A stretch of 35,352 nucleotides of DNA from a virus. Where the stretch lies: the IMG/VR virus record IMGVR_UViG_3300045988_127559; one strand, given 5' to 3'. Position 1 is the first letter of the stretch, and each line of letters starts with the position of its first letter. The translations under genes and the position numbers were made by a program. A model generated the notes under the pieces. The model did not search any database and was not told where the DNA came from. It worked only from the letters and a program-made list of their open reading frames with translations. Shown one piece after another: positions 2,901 through 30,697 of the stretch.

Positions 2901-2969
2901 ATAAAGAGGAAGAATTAGCATATAAAAAATAATACCCCCACAGGGTATAGAAAGAAAGAGGAAATATAA

Positions 2970-3233
2970 ATGAAAGTTAAAACATTAAAAACAAAACCAA
3001 AGTATTTTGAAATGCAGTTGAAAGGCATAAAAGATTTTGAAATTAGGAAAAATGATCGTTATTTTCAAGTTGGCGATATTTTATGCCTACAAGAATTTGA
3101 CCGCGATTATACCATGAGATTTTTCCATGTAGAGGTAACTTGTGTAATTTATGATAGCGAGTATTGCAAAGATGGCTACGTAGTTTTAGGAACACGAAAA
3201 AGGTTAGATTTAGATGCTAACTTGCTAAGATAG
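2970..3233 (+). CDS. DUF3850 / ASCH-like (PUA-fold) small protein
   Basis: KTKPKYFEMQLKGIKDFEIRKNDRYFQVGDILCLQEFD...DGYVVLG matches the DUF3850 pattern (K..P.YF..v..G.K.FEiRkNDR.fqvGD.l.L.E...). Good SD AAGAGG. Confidence 0.7.
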   Translation: MKVKTLKTKPKYFEMQLKGIKDFEIRKNDRYFQVGDILCLQEFDRDYTMRFFHVEVTCVIYDSEYCKDGYVVLGTRKRLDLDANLLR

Positions 3234-7517: not shown

Positions 7518-8734
7518 TGGCATTTACACAAAAACAACGTGAGTTTTTAGATAACGCTAATCATCGTTGGAATATAAAGCAAGGAGCGACACGTAGCGGT
7601 AAAACCTACTTAGATTACTTTGTTATTCCAAAACGAATAAGGCAAGTTGCTGGAAAAGATGGATTGGTTGTTATTTTAGGAAATACAAAGGGCACACTCC
7701 AAAGGAACGTAATAGAGCCTTTGCAAAATATATATGGAGAACAGTTAGTTGGTAATATTAGAAGCGATAATACCGCGAATATGTTCGGGGAGAAAGTATA
7801 TTGCTTAGGAGCGGATAAGATTAACCAAGTAAACAGAATAAGAGGGGCAAGTATTAAATACTGCTATGGTGACGAGGTTGCGACATGGCACGAAGAAGTA
7901 TTCACAATGCTTAAATCGCGTTTAGATAAGCCGTATAGCAAGTTCGACGGAACTTTAAATCCCGAAAGCCCACACCACTGGCTTAAAAAGTTTCTAGAAA
8001 GTGATGCAGATATATACTGTCAATCTTACACAATAGACGATAACCCGACACTTGACCCATCGTTTGTGGCTAATCTAAAGCAGGAATATGCTGGAACGGT
8101 ATACTATGATCGTTATATCTTAGGATTATGGAAATCGGCTGAGGGTGTAATATATACGCAAATAGCAGATAGACCACAAGATTATGTTATCGATGAAGCA
8201 CCGCCTATTATGTTTGCTACTATTGGAGTAGATTTTGGCGGTAACGGTTCAGCAACCACATTTAATTTAACGGGATATACTTCGGGAATGAACGAGGTAA
8301 TAACTTTGAAAGAGTACTACCGTAAAGGCATTATGACGCCTAAAGAATTAGAAGAAGATTTTTTGACGTTTGTAAAAGAGTGCAAACGATTTTTTATTGT
8401 AACAGACGCTTACTGTGATAGTGCTGAGCAAACTCTTATAAGAGGGTTGAAAGTCGCAGTAGCAAAAGAGGGAATAGGGCTAAGCATACATAATGCAAGG
8501 AAAGGTGAAATAAACAACCGCATACGCTTTTTTTGTCGTTTACATGGCATAGGCAAGCATAAAATCATGCGCGAATGTAAATACACCTTAGAAGCATTTC
8601 AAACTGCTGTATGGGATTCTAAATACGTTACAAAGGATGTTAGGCTGGATGATGGAACATATAACATAGATAGTTTGGATGCACAAGAATATGCGGTAGA
8701 GCCGTATATGAACCAAATTATCGATATATGGTAG
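7517..8734 (+). CDS. terL: Terminase large subunit (PBSX-type)
   Basis: Walker A GATRSGKT, Walker B-like CYGDE, C-terminal nuclease region. 405 aa. Confidence 0.95.
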   Translation: MAFTQKQREFLDNANHRWNIKQGATRSGKTYLDYFVIPKRIRQVAGKDGLVVILGNTKGTLQRNVIEPLQNIYGEQLVGNIRSDNTANMFGEKVYCLGADKINQVNRIRGASIKYCYGDEVATWHEEVFTMLKSRLDKPYSKFDGTLNPESPHHWLKKFLESDADIYCQSYTIDDNPTLDPSFVANLKQEYAGTVYYDRYILGLWKSAEGVIYTQIADRPQDYVIDEAPPIMFATIGVDFGGNGSATTFNLTGYTSGMNEVITLKEYYRKGIMTPKELEEDFLTFVKECKRFFIVTDAYCDSAEQTLIRGLKVAVAKEGIGLSIHNARKGEINNRIRFFCRLHGIGKHKIMRECKYTLEAFQTAVWDSKYVTKDVRLDDGTYNIDSLDAQEYAVEPYMNQIIDIW

Positions 8735-12336: not shown

Positions 12337-12849
12337 ATGCCAAAACTAACAAGAAAAAGTGTACGTAGTGAAATTGTTAAGGCTGGAGTAAGTGAAGATA
12401 AAGCCAATGAATTATTAGAAAGCATTATGTCTATGTATGGAGCTAGCACTGCTGACATGGTTTCTAAAGAAGATTTGGAAGAACTTAAGCAAGAAGCGGT
12501 CAATGAAGCTATGAAAAACACACCTAAAGACTACAAAGAAAGTCAAGATTACAAAGATTTATTAGGAAGAGTACAAGAGTACGAAAAGAAAGACACTATC
12601 CGAACATTAACGGATAAAGGAGTTAAAAGCGACAAGTACGCGGAAATGCTCTTGGAAAGATTAGACAAAGAAAAAGACATTGATGAACAGCTTACGGCTT
12701 TTAAAGAGGAATATGCCGATATGTTCAATGTCGAACAACAAGAAGAGCCAAAACCTCAATTTGGAGCACAGCCAAAAGGCACTATGCCAAGTGGCAAAGA
12801 AGCACAAACGTTTGGGGATTTTTGGAGTTTTATGCCAAAAGAAAAGTAG
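12337..12849 (+). CDS. Scaffolding protein (GP20-like)
   Basis: Immediately upstream of the capsid gene. Helical, K/E/D-rich, 170 aa. ATG 12337 follows AGGAGGA; the longer TTG-12235 form runs through the terminator. Confidence 0.75.
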   Translation: MPKLTRKSVRSEIVKAGVSEDKANELLESIMSMYGASTADMVSKEDLEELKQEAVNEAMKNTPKDYKESQDYKDLLGRVQEYEKKDTIRTLTDKGVKSDKYAEMLLERLDKEKDIDEQLTAFKEEYADMFNVEQQEEPKPQFGAQPKGTMPSGKEAQTFGDFWSFMPKEK

Positions 12850-27916: not shown

Positions 27917-28110
27917 TTTTACTCCCAAAAAACTCCCAAATTAAATTAGAATGGTTAAAATGATTATATATTTACTATAGAATAGCCAATTTTTGTAATC
28001 AAATTAATTAAATTTTATATACTTATGCTCAAAATTACGTAGCCATTATAATTATTACTGTATGGTTCGTAAGGGGTTTGAGAGGATTTTACTCCTTTTT
28101 ACTCCCAAAT
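27917..28110. other. Probable attP region with repeated ACTCCCAAA motifs (candidate integrase arm sites)
   Basis: 332-bp AT-rich non-coding stretch next to int. TTTTACTCCCAAA at 27917, ACTCCCAAA at 27932, TTTTACTCC at 28087, TTTTTACTCCCAAA at 28096. The core position is not determinable from this sequence alone. Confidence 0.5.
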
Positions 28111-28117
28111 GCTTTCT

Positions 28118-28143
28118 AAGGTACTCATTCGAGTACCTTTTTT
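28118..28143 (+). terminator. Plus-strand-oriented hairpin plus T-run overlapping the int stop codon
   Basis: aaggtactc-attc-gagtacctt (perfect 9 bp) followed by TTTT. There is no U-run in the minus orientation. Confidence 0.55.
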
Positions 28144-29189
28144 CTTTCACTAAAAATTGTTGTTACTTGTCTACGTTCGTCTGGATAGAGGTGGCCATAG
28201 ATATCTAGTGTTGTACTTGTTTTGCTATGTCCCGCTATTTTAGAAACAGTATAGTGATTAACATTGGCATGTATTAACATAGATATATAGCTATGTCTAA
28301 AACCGTGTATACTTATTTTTGGTAGAGCGGGGTCATTGTATCTAGATAACAAAACGTTTAAATATGTATAATACTCTCTGTAGGGGTATTCCTCGCTTTT
28401 TAAGACTTCTTTTAAATTTGGGGTCAACCAATCGGGAATTGGTACTATTCGCCGTGATTGCTCATTTTTAAACTCTGTAGACACAACAAGACCATTGCTA
28501 GTATTTTTTACTGTATGTGATAAATGCAGTTCGTTTTTATCTTCGTCTAAATCGGATAGGCTAAGTCCGCAAAATTCTCCCTTTCGCAATCCAGTATAAA
28601 ATAGGGTGCAAAAAGCAATCTTGTGTTTTTTGTTCGAAACATTTGAAATAAATTGATTAAACTGTGATTCGTTCCAAAATTCAAGTTTAGGCTTGGTTGT
28701 TTTAGTTTTATCAATATATACAAAGGGGTTTCGATCAAGCGCCTTTTTTCTTATACACCAATTAAAGAATGCACTTAATGCTCCCTCACGAATTCTAACC
28801 GTATTAGGTGATAAGTCTTTCTTTAAATCTTCAATCCATTCAATTAAATCATAATCATTTATTTTTGTTATTCTTACGTTTTCAAATCTTGCATATTTTT
28901 TTCTATAAGAAAAAGCAATATTACGAACGGTAGAGGGGGAACGTCCTTTATTTTTATAATCGGCAATATATGCATCATATAAATCTTTAAAAAGTAGTCC
29001 TTTGGCTACAACGACTTGATTAGTCCTATCTAGCAATAGTTCAGCTACTTTTTTTCTACCGTCTTTTATAGTTTTGGATGTAACAGTTTTTCTAATTCTG
29101 CTGCCGTCCGCTCTATAGCCTATATTCACGTCAAAAATATATCGTTTTTCGCCGTTTTTTAATATTCGGACTTTATATTCCTTTGCCAT
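28125..29189 (-). CDS. int: Tyrosine integrase (phage integrase family)
   Basis: 354 aa with an N-terminal arm/SAM-like domain. Catalytic region ...GLRKGEF..L...HGFRHSYISML...GHSKTSTTLDIYGHLY gives the R-H-R-Y signature. Confidence 0.95.
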   Translation of the reverse strand: MAKEYKVRILKNGEKRYIFDVNIGYRADGSRIRKTVTSKTIKDGRKKVAELLLDRTNQVVVAKGLLFKDLYDAYIADYKNKGRSPSTVRNIAFSYRKKYARFENVRITKINDYDLIEWIEDLKKDLSPNTVRIREGALSAFFNWCIRKKALDRNPFVYIDKTKTTKPKLEFWNESQFNQFISNVSNKKHKIAFCTLFYTGLRKGEFCGLSLSDLDEDKNELHLSHTVKNTSNGLVVSTEFKNEQSRRIVPIPDWLTPNLKEVLKSEEYPYREYYTYLNVLLSRYNDPALPKISIHGFRHSYISMLIHANVNHYTVSKIAGHSKTSTTLDIYGHLYPDERRQVTTIFSERKKVLE

Positions 29190-29230
29190 AATAAAAACAC
29201 GTCCTTTCTTTGCTTGCCTTAGACGTGTTC
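29190..29230 (-). terminator. Intrinsic terminator-like hairpin ending 6 nt upstream of the int start codon; overlaps the int SD
   Basis: The minus-strand RNA reads GAACACGUC-uaaggcaagcaaagaaag-GACGUGUUU followed by UUAUU then AUG. The only SD-like element (GAAAGGA) lies in the loop/3' arm. Confidence 0.6.
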
Positions 29231-29242
29231 AAATGTTATAAT
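29214..29242 (+). promoter_or_regulatory. Plus-strand extended -10 promoter in the int / membrane-protein intergenic gap
   Basis: TTGCCT (29214-19), 17-nt spacer, TGtTATAAT (29234-42). Confidence 0.55.
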
Positions 29243-29248
29243 TAAGCA

Positions 29249-29314
29249 CGTAAAAGGACATTTAAGAGTTGTACTTTACGTTATGGACCACCGCTATGAG
29301 CAGTGGTCTTTTTT
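29249..29314 (+). ncRNA. Candidate ~65-nt cis-antisense small RNA
   Basis: Bounded by the promoter above and by the hairpin GACCAC(c)GCT-atg-AGC(a)GTGGTC (29286-29308) plus TTTTTT. An inner stem ACGTAAA/TTTACGT is present. No credible + strand ORF. Confidence 0.4.
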
Positions 29315-29846
29315 ATATTTTTGCTAGATTTTCTTTAATTATTTCTATACTGTTCTTTCTCCAACCATCAGCATTACGGTACGGATATTTAACATAGTGG
29401 TGTGCATAGTATCCTACATTGTACACTGCTAAATCCAAGTCTTTTAATTCGCTTGCATTTTCTGCATTGGAATTTTTTTCGATATATGTGTATATGTAAT
29501 ATCCATAATACATTGTTTTTTCCATTGTTGTATTATCAACGGTCAAATTATCTACATTAGCTTTGATAAAATATAATCCATCATTGATTGTTGCTTCTGC
29601 CTCTTCTTTAGTTGCTTTTTCTCTGTCTTCTTTTGCTTTTTCAGCTATCTGGTCAACGGCACTGCTAGTATTGTGTTCTGATAAGTTTAAAACAAGATTT
29701 TCACTTGATGAAAATCCATAATCGATATTAGTTGTGCCTTGTTGCGATCCGATTATTGCTCCAGCAAGTAAAAGTATTAAAAATATTCCTATTACTATAG
29801 CTTTTTGCTTAATTCCCTTTCTCCAAAACTCTTTAAACTTCTTCAT
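29313..29846 (-). CDS. Membrane-anchored extracytoplasmic protein at the int/repressor position (superinfection-exclusion candidate)
   Basis: Basic N-terminus plus TM (AIVIGIFLILLLAGAIIG), then a ~140-aa soluble domain rich in Y/N/E. ATG 29846 follows GGAGGA. No family recognised. Confidence 0.65.
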   Translation of the reverse strand: MKKFKEFWRKGIKQKAIVIGIFLILLLAGAIIGSQQGTTNIDYGFSSSENLVLNLSEHNTSSAVDQIAEKAKEDREKATKEEAEATINDGLYFIKANVDNLTVDNTTMEKTMYYGYYIYTYIEKNSNAENASELKDLDLAVYNVGYYAHHYVKYPYRNADGWRKNSIEIIKENLAKI

Positions 29847-29903
29847 TTTTTTCTTTCCTCCCATATATTATTTTATATAAACACCTAATGTGTGTTTATC
29901 TAT

Positions 29904-29913: not shown

Positions 29914-30561
29914 CTATAACATATCATTTGGATCAAATGATACATCAATCACTTTTCCTATTATTTCTGCATATCCATTTTCGAAATCTTGTTTTTTTAA
30001 AATCATAACTTCATGAATTGGATTAGAGGAGCGAGGTTGTAAAAGGACAGTATCGTTATCGAAAATAACTTGTTTTACTGTTGCTTCATCACCGTTCACT
30101 CGTACAACAGCTATTTGACGGTTTTCAACAATCACTTTCTTTACGAGTACTAATGATCCATCTAGAATTCCAACAGCATTCATGCTATCCCCTTTAACTT
30201 TTAACCAAAAAGTTTCTGCACCACTGGCTTTTACCTTATCTACAGGTTTGTAGCCCAAAACGTTTTCATCGCAATACATGTTATAACCTGCTTTCACGAC
30301 CCCTATTATAGGTCTTGATATTTGTTCGGAGTTGACTTCATACGTTTCAGTATTGGAAAAAGTGGGTGTGTCAGACAATAATATATCAGTTGGAATATTG
30401 AATATCTCCGACATTTTCTTCAGTTCTTTATTTTGGGGCTCTCTTGTACCCTTTTCCCATAAAGATACTAAAACGCGAGAAACTTCTAACATATCAGCTA
30501 ATTCTTGTTGTTTCATATTATTTATTGTTCTATATTTTTTTATATTTGACCCGAGATTCAC
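29914..30561 (-). CDS. CI-like repressor: XRE HTH plus LexA/S24 autopeptidase domain
   Basis: N-terminus IKKYRTINNMKQQELADMLEVSRVLVSLWEKG (HTH). C-terminus GDSMNAVGILDGSLVLVKK...ATVKQV (Ser/Lys dyad context). GTG 30561 follows GGAGGTG; the track TTG 30576 lies inside the SD. Confidence 0.9.
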   Translation of the reverse strand: MNLGSNIKKYRTINNMKQQELADMLEVSRVLVSLWEKGTREPQNKELKKMSEIFNIPTDILLSDTPTFSNTETYEVNSEQISRPIIGVVKAGYNMYCDENVLGYKPVDKVKASGAETFWLKVKGDSMNAVGILDGSLVLVKKVIVENRQIAVVRVNGDEATVKQVIFDNDTVLLQPRSSNPIHEVMILKKQDFENGYAEIIGKVIDVSFDPNDML

Positions 30562-30580
30562 AGTTATCACCTCCAAATAA

Positions 30581-30697
30581 ATTGTAACATAAAGATAATT
30601 AAAATAAATAAAAATGTAACTTTTTGTTAATATGTATTTACTTTTATGTTTCCTTATGTTACAATAATATTGTAATCAAGTTAACTAATAGTTACAA
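30581..30697. promoter_or_regulatory. Genetic-switch operator cluster built on TTGTAAC(ATA) half-sites
   Basis: ATTGTAACATA at 30581-91 and its exact inverse at 30655-65. 17-bp palindrome TTACAATAATATTGTAA at 30659-75. ATGTAAC at 30614-20. GTTACAA at 30691-97. Confidence 0.7.
30637..30665 (+). promoter_or_regulatory. Early rightward promoter (cro-like gene)
   Basis: TTTACT, 17-nt spacer, TGtTACAAT (extended -10), embedded in operator copies. A mirror TGTTACAAT on the minus strand (30581-89) faces the repressor gene. Confidence 0.6.

Follow-up and report, generated by a model that had tools for sequence, protein, structure and literature searches.

Upstream of the tyrosine integrase gene int, the 35,352-nucleotide (nt) viral DNA of IMG/VR virus record IMGVR_UViG_3300045988_127559 (the whole stretch is called the window hereafter) carries a compact unit on the strand opposite to int, with a promoter and two hairpins, the second of which is an intrinsic terminator. 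Comparison with related loci indicated that this unit is very probably a real small RNA (sRNA) gene. The predicted RNA belongs to a lineage-restricted family of structured small RNAs that has not been catalogued before; in Erysipelotrichaceae prophages, its members lie at the start of integrase genes, where they most likely restrain integrase expression. How temperate phages of Gram-positive gut bacteria hold integrase low in lysogeny and release it for integration and excision is largely unknown, and the family provides a candidate control module for prophage stability in Erysipelotrichaceae.

Promoter, hairpins and terminator of the RNA unit

The promoter was recognized in the sequence and by a consensus scan. 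It is composed of the -35 hexamer TTGCCT (29214-29219, + strand) and the extended -10 element TGtTATAAT (29234-29242, + strand; TG at 29234-29235, TATAAT at 29237-29242), with a 17 nt spacer, and TTGCCT at a spacing of 17-18 nt is retained by most family members. The predicted sRNA, of about 63-70 nt, spans 29246-29314 on the + strand according to the covariance model R1 (see below) and the fold; its start was placed at a purine 4-8 nt past the -10 element (29246-29250) and its end inside the T run. The first hairpin, H1 (29248-29281, + strand), was found in both the sequence and the fold and is formed by ACGTAAA (29248-29254) and TTTACGT (29275-29281). The terminator (29286-29314, + strand) pairs GACCAC (29286-29291) with GTGGTC (29303-29308) ahead of TTTTTT (29309-29314); in full, the stem is GACCAC(c)GC / GC(a)GTGGTC with the loop CTATGAG/TATGA, followed by T6. 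When the + strand RNA from 29246 to 29316 (71 nt) was folded, exactly two hairpins were obtained, with a minimum free energy (MFE) of -19.8 kcal/mol and z = -2.97. On the minus strand there is no U run past the terminator hairpin, indicating that the terminator works in one direction only.

These results agree with an initial annotation of the window, which had proposed the promoter TTGCCT-17-TGtTATAAT at 29214-29242, the hairpin GACCAC..GTGGTC at 29286-29308 followed by TTTTTT, and a second stem ACGTAAA/TTTACGT. The promoter elements were found at these positions, the hairpin was recovered from the sequence and by a terminator scan, and the second stem formed in the predicted fold. The gene boundaries that it gave, with the int start at 29189 and the stop of the upstream minus-strand gene at 29313-29315, are also correct. 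Its view that there is nothing to encode here held as well: the + strand contains only a 14-codon open reading frame (ORF) with its ATG at 29284, which is not conserved because this codon reads ATT in the related loci L003, L005, L094 and L095. A 42-aa ORF starting at TTG on the same strand would extend through the terminator, and it is shortened to 4 codons in group B of the family. No ORF preceded by a Shine-Dalgarno (SD) sequence was found in the minus-strand spacer. A conserved small toxin ORF overlapped by the RNA, which a type I toxin-antitoxin system would require, was thus not found.

Taken on its own, the unit is only mildly unusual, since in a 4 kb region the promoter ranked within the top three of 26 sites (10/12 matches to the consensus), and the terminator was one of only two, with 1.6 expected by chance. 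The other TG-extended site in that region, at 30637-30665, was weaker (9/12). What lifts the unit above chance is its conservation, which extends to int relatives with down to 42% identity and to 24 of 81 family genomes.

Viral, genome and metagenome contigs were searched with the integrase as anchor, and conservation was assessed in the relatives so gathered, whose Int identities range between 42% and 100%; about 45 distinct family members were collected. Every integrase relative down to 42% identity showed the same opposite-strand layout directly upstream of int: a TG-extended -10 element directed away from int, the 5' sequence RAGYACGWUAAAAGGA or a variant of it, and then H1, usually a further hairpin H2, occasionally more hairpins, and the terminator hairpin with its T run. 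This conserved layout supports the stand-alone, non-coding + strand unit with two stems that had been proposed for the window. The two-stem shape is right for the window, whose group lacks H2, and does not hold for most relatives, which have three hairpins and a length of 90-110 nt. A -10 element stood directly before the RNA in all 42 members examined, with the TG extension in 37 of them.

The stems were then evaluated for covariation. In a model-guided alignment, which was fitted to the structure and therefore gives inflated pairing figures (the hairpins are still plain by eye), 85% of the cells were paired vs 69% in shuffles, none of 500 of which reached the observed value; controls with slid partners gave 36-54%. 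In the same alignment, H2 was 94% paired, with compensatory change in 7/7 pairs, and the terminator helix was 97% paired, with compensatory change in 6/8 pairs. Compensatory stem changes in related phages, which the initial annotation had suggested looking for, are thus present. The H1 stems of relatives also change on both sides, as in GCAUAAUAAAA/UUUUAUUAUGC, GCGUGAUAAAA/UUUUAUCGCGC and GUACAAUAAA/UUUAUUGUAC. An independent, loop-anchored count over the H2 and terminator stems gave 613 Watson-Crick pairs, along with 59 G.U pairs valid on the + strand only vs 4 positions pairing on the minus strand only. As expected of a cis-encoded antisense sRNA, the unit has, on sequence evidence, its own promoter, and, as expected of a short discrete RNA, its own terminator, whose T run is kept in the family. 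From these elements, together with their conservation and covariation, we infer that the predicted sRNA is transcribed.

Distribution of the family and linkage to recombinase genes

The covariance model R1 is based on 11 three-hairpin variants, for which the structure was drawn by hand, and no two-hairpin sequence was included in the seed. MAFFT/RNAalifold on the same 11 variants was set aside as a basis for the model, as it recovered the terminator only, H1 and H2 having been misaligned. R1 matched the window at 29243-29315 on the + strand with 34.4 bits (E-value about 2e-3). It also matched 24 of 81 genomes in the family of an Erysipelotrichaceae metagenome-assembled genome (MAG) and one further genome only in an even sample of 151 genomes across the class (Bacilli); both R1 matches in that out-of-family genome face integrase-like genes.

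Searches of existing resources returned little. BLAST of window positions 28100-29900 against GenBank phages gave no match, and exact integrase peptides gave none in genome contigs, where an alignment-based integrase search gave one MAG. Rfam 15 contained no match to the whole window at the gathering threshold and only noise for 28900-29600 at E-values up to 10. At 10 related loci, above-threshold Rfam matches were limited to a transfer RNA (tRNA) and a transfer-messenger RNA (tmRNA), both at attachment sites. In one relative, L010, the int-sense strand at 2903-2981 matched ctRNA_pND324 (RF00238) with 35.6 bits, below the 45-bit cut-off; this match spans the mirror of H1 and the mirrored -10 region, lies on the strand opposite to the sRNA, and was found in no other relative and not in the window. 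The pattern GTGATATTGCNGTATCAC was a dead end, with 77 loci in viral contigs, nearly all within an unrelated XRE-type gene. The 18-mer GTGATATTGCAGTATCAC, which is H2 of group D, forms non-coding hairpins in two unrelated viral contigs, L047 (about 7990-8050) and L015 (about 12540-12590); the L047 copy is lengthened to CCCTGTGATA..TATCACAGGG plus a T run and lies downstream of a TGCTATATT element.

For 25 of the 30 genome matches, an intact recombinase gene lies on the other strand and starts 12-77 nt before the RNA. A tyrosine integrase, 20-47% identical to that of the window, was placed directly upstream on the opposite strand by tblastn at 18 of the 30, and inspection of the divergent ORFs revealed, in addition, four tyrosine integrases from a different subfamily and three large serine recombinases (Resolvase + Recombinase + zinc ribbon). 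The remaining five matches were at contig ends, beside truncated int-like starts and, once, beside a lipoprotein gene. At 17 or more of 29 genome loci, the 3' end of the RNA has, at a distance of up to about 40 nt, the end of a gene that reads in the same direction as int. These genes are mutually unrelated, which indicates that the RNA travels with the 5' end of the recombinase gene and not with the repressor operon. The initial annotation had described the RNA as complementary to the 3' untranslated region (UTR) of the repressor-operon message and to read-through entering int; by geometry, the complementarity holds for any transcript running from the repressor/membrane-protein operon into int, but the tie to the 3' UTR of that operon was not upheld, since the RNA accompanies recombinase genes of many kinds irrespective of the gene on its far side. 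In many loci, the spacer of approximately 60 bp that separates int from the RNA shows higher conservation than the integrases do, with the pattern CAT-AATAAAAACACGTCCTTTC-N8-TTGCCTTRRACGTGYTC-N5-TGnTAWAAT.

The genes around the unit are as follows. The window represents the complete genome of a gut-bacterium phage and closely resembles an IMG/VR record that has terminal repeats. Its int gene (28125-29189, minus strand) encodes a tyrosine integrase of 354 aa (Pfam Phage_integrase, E = 4.9e-16). Upstream, on the same strand, a membrane-anchored protein of 183 aa without a Pfam family (29313-29864) reads toward int, and its stop codon abuts the sRNA terminator. The leftward operon is headed by a cI/LexA-type repressor (29914-30576, minus strand; Pfam HTH_3 and Peptidase_S24). 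Over the first ~40 codons of int, the DNA of the window and that of L010-L014 are the same or almost the same (as shown for 40 nt from the start), whereas the rest of these integrases is 58% identical and the int leader upstream differs; this suggests a recombination breakpoint inside the N-terminal region of int. Immediately past int on its 3' side, L150 has a tRNA gene (2943-3015) and L171 the 3' portion of a tmRNA gene (1-140), which mark the attachment sites of these prophages. Two pairs of metagenome loci with other integrases (L119/L122 and L127/L130; int 24-28% identical) carry short promoter and terminator units that point away from int about 60-330 nt upstream of it; one of these reads ..CATATAAT, a stretch of about 75 nt, GGCACTCCGTATGGGGTGCC and T7. 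In sequence, these units have no relation to the RNA family.

The int leader and possible modes of action

We assign a probability of about 0.55 to the reading that the sRNA is a constitutive countertranscript to the int leader, which, along with a head-on promoter and a fold-back hairpin, keeps integrase low; the RNA-RNA pairing and the sign of the effect on int are what we infer from the arrangement. The sRNA would be transcribed away from int, from its own strong TG-extended sigma-A-type promoter, and would end at the one-directional terminator. Transcription reaching int would come from the repressor/cargo operon and run across the sRNA gene. The UU-NNN-AG loops of the sRNA would start kissing contacts with complementary hairpins of this read-through message, and the resulting duplex and the head-on promoter would reduce the message reaching int by cleavage, decay or interference. 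Separately, the fold-back hairpin, which extends across the sRNA promoter, would hide the int ribosome-binding site in the read-through message. The predicted joint outcome is a low level of integrase while the lysogenic leftward operon is on.

The geometry of the locus favors an overlapping antisense partner, because the co-oriented gene ends at the terminator and the minus strand has no terminator there. No convincing minus-strand int promoter was found between the sRNA start and the SD, either by consensus scan in the window or by reading in the relatives. Since the sRNA promoter is inside the int leader, and no promoter proximal to int was found, transcription to int must cross the sRNA gene in antisense, and int messages are implied to contain the region complementary to the sRNA.

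A second element, absent from the initial annotation, is predicted to belong to the same module: a fold-back hairpin hiding the int SD. The minus-strand spacer folds into mirror hairpins plus this hairpin, AACACGUC - 18 nt - GACGUGUU, then UUUUUAUUAUG (29196-29229, minus strand), which appears in both the MFE and the centroid structures. Overlap with the int SD (GAAAGGA) occurs in the 3' arm, and the -35 hexamer of the sRNA lies in the loop. Across the family, the hairpin often takes in the AUG, giving stems of 15-20 bp (-13 to -20 kcal/mol), and the loop and 5' arm coincide with the sRNA promoter region. A hairpin sequestering the SD or AUG was predicted in all 10 leaders of the c:d type (the window and nine relatives). 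Among eight leaders of other types, it was clear only in L010, L114 and L115, and less so in L113; in such leaders, it appeared mainly when the sRNA complement was blocked. The right-arm variants GACGTG and AACGTG still pair, by G-C or G.U, on the minus strand. In some leaders without the CACGTC/GACGTG arms, a GCUCC-type sequence beside the sRNA start can pair with the GGAG of the SD. Thus, at least in the common c:d-type leaders, the read-through message is predicted to have a closed int start site. We also considered a trp-type 1:2 / 2:3 / 3:4 attenuator in the minus-strand leader, for which another pairing could form (by eye, about 10-11 of 14 bases); it was set aside, as no covariation lies behind it and blocking the sRNA complement left the fold-back hairpin unchanged. 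ACGT-core boxes recur in this region at 29199, 29223, 29248 and 29278, and a DNA-binding protein may recognize them.

The loops of H2 and the terminator are nearly always 7 nt long and framed as UU-NNN-AG, or else 6 nt long, UUGGCG or UUGCAG. With U at loop position 2 and A at position 6, a YUNR U-turn motif is present in the loop or in its exact complement. This motif reportedly occurs in fast-pairing antisense RNAs, and its presence fits a kissing-loop countertranscript. Of 37 RNAs, 27 carry the same loop twice, and the triplet differs between RNAs on otherwise similar stems: it is GGU in L150, L152 and L153, GCC in L144 and L167, and ACC in L145, and in L164 both loops are flipped to CGCCAA. 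Mutually complementary loop classes occur within the family, namely UUGGUAG with UUACCAG and UUGGCG with CGCCAA. We offer, as a tentative and rather unlikely extension, that the matched 7 nt loops could be an address code, by which each prophage RNA would recognize only its own partner through two identical kissing contacts, like plasmid incompatibility groups. If so, co-resident related prophages would regulate their recombinases independently, and the RNA might even act on incoming or neighboring elements with a complementary loop class. In L192 (G059:C12), at about 100-135, a second terminator hairpin with the same loop, GAACTTCTCTG-TTGGTAG-CAGGGAAGTT, directly follows the first, apparently the result of a tandem duplication there.

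Several observations weigh against the countertranscript reading. The sRNA covers neither the SD nor the start codon of int, and blocking its complement in silico neither opened nor closed the fold-back hairpin; hence, a direct effect on int translation is not predicted, and the sRNA and the hairpin look like parallel safeguards and not like one switch. The terminator stem of the window has a C.A mismatch, an exception within the family, which makes the reverse-complement hairpin of the minus strand slightly more stable. In L092, L103 and L107, a divergent or distant gene follows the terminator, so that not every locus would receive read-through from an operon upstream. The identity of the two loops within one RNA finds no explanation in a pure cis-antisense model. 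Finally, the 5' region of the sRNA resembles the int SD, its complement in the leader is thus an anti-SD, and the RNA could equally act as an activator of int, making the sign of the effect uncertain.

The concerted change of the paired loops, including the flip of both in L164, suggests one co-varying partner, which would suit an RNA acting in trans on a separate target (a host RNA, or an early or excision transcript of the phage) and lying beside int merely because this is the usual slot of such genes. Since the loops have just 6-7 nt, such a target could go unseen by sequence alone. In nearly all of 19 prophages, the 8 kb downstream lacked the loop complement, extra same-sense copies of the loop were random, bar one duplicated terminator, and the best score of a duplex scan across the whole window, 38, was within the range of the shuffled null (28-40). 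We regard action in trans as unlikely. Binding of a dimeric protein, e.g., an RNA chaperone, nuclease or phage regulator, for which the RNA would serve as ligand or decoy, could account for two equally framed, identical loops about 26-31 nt apart. This seems very improbable: a host protein would call for a fixed sequence, yet the triplet varies widely (GGU, GCC, ACC, GCG, GGC and others); the neighboring proteins are unrelated, and no co-varying candidate was found. The idea of an RNA guide, whose loops would equal the recombination overlap sequence, was rejected: the loop is not in the phage attachment site (attP) region, and the same RNA occurs beside both serine and tyrosine recombinases. 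The sole upstream match, TTGGTAG in L150 at -1405 from the RNA start, is inside the flanking tRNA gene, and this explains it as a chance match, since that tRNA contains TTGGTAG.

Two further readings give the RNA product little or no part. The unit could be a transcriptional boundary, in which the head-on promoter and the one-way terminator shield int against the lysogenic operon and protect the cargo genes from transcription passing through int. The promoter does face an operon reading toward int, and the terminator sits exactly at the stop codon of the upstream gene; yet a boundary would have no need for three covarying hairpins, a conserved loop frame and concerted loop changes, nor for the conserved 5' sequence RAGYACGWUAAAAGGA, and we hold it to be improbable. 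Least probable of all is that there is no RNA and that the inverted repeats are DNA sites (operators or recombinase sites) or the promoter and terminator mere chance likenesses. The ACGT-core boxes would suit DNA sites, and arms of 6-8 bp about a 7 bp spacer resemble recombinase core sites. Nevertheless, the arms covary and the centers are conserved, the reverse of what protein-binding sites show; the G.U asymmetry of 59 vs 4 indicates an RNA of the + strand; the occurrence beside both recombinase classes and the lack of the loop sequence in the attP region argue in the same direction, and the promoter and T run are kept throughout the family. 

Significance and comparison with known systems

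This work defines an RNA family with a working covariance model and with structural and strand evidence, and links it physically to recombinase genes of two unrelated enzyme classes. It also makes it possible to annotate an element for which existing pipelines give no entry. A concrete, unexplained feature of these RNAs is that their two loops change in concert.

One close comparison is with IS10/Tn10, where RNA-OUT and a fold-back structure reportedly inhibit the transposase. In both cases, the 5' end of a recombinase gene is guarded by a strong outward promoter giving a stable stem-loop antisense RNA, and a hairpin hides the ribosome-binding site in transcripts from outside, which here is predicted in the 10 c:d-type leaders and some others. 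However, RNA-OUT overlaps the start codon and ribosome-binding site of the transposase, whereas the sRNA of the window covers neither of these in int, starting ~60 nt upstream of the int ATG and pointing away from it. No weak inward promoter like pIN was found here. The plasmid countertranscripts ColE1 RNA I, pIP501 RNAIII and pT181 RNAI (Rfam ctRNA families) have 70-140 nt, 2-4 stem-loops and loops of 6-7 nt. They resemble the proposed sRNA in being constitutive and antisense to the leader of a replication or recombination gene, with the loop as the specificity determinant, a property that our sRNA would share. They differ in that their target is a rep leader and the presumed target here an integrase leader, and a conserved sRNA-dependent attenuator was not supported, as blocking the complement changed nothing. 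RNAs of the lambda OOP or GadY type bring about unequal expression within an operon through RNase III. Like them, the unit is a promoter-terminator pair antisense to the junction of two genes, which here are predicted to be co-transcribed; OOP overlaps the coding end of cII, whereas the window RNA overlaps only the upstream stop codon and is mainly in the spacer before int.

Among int-associated elements, the Lacto-int motif has been listed for Lactobacillales and phages, with no Rfam accession (Weinberg et al. 2010, PMC2864571). In prophage 370.3 of Streptococcus pyogenes SF370, Spy_sRNA779816, an RNA of 89 nt between int3 and the next gene, was detected by RNA-seq and Northern blot; it has a predicted promoter and a predicted terminator of its own and no known function (Le Rhun et al. 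2016, PMC4829319). Two more sRNAs with unknown functions are located between int4 and the repressor of prophage 370.4 of S. pyogenes (PMC4829319). Compared by description only, Spy_sRNA779816 and the window RNA are alike in position, in the promoter-terminator layout and in belonging to a Firmicutes prophage. In contrast, R1 members in the sampled Bacilli are confined, bar one genome, to the Erysipelotrichaceae-type family. Collectively, the predicted family is a new and well-supported addition to the promoter-terminator sRNAs that are found adjacent to int.
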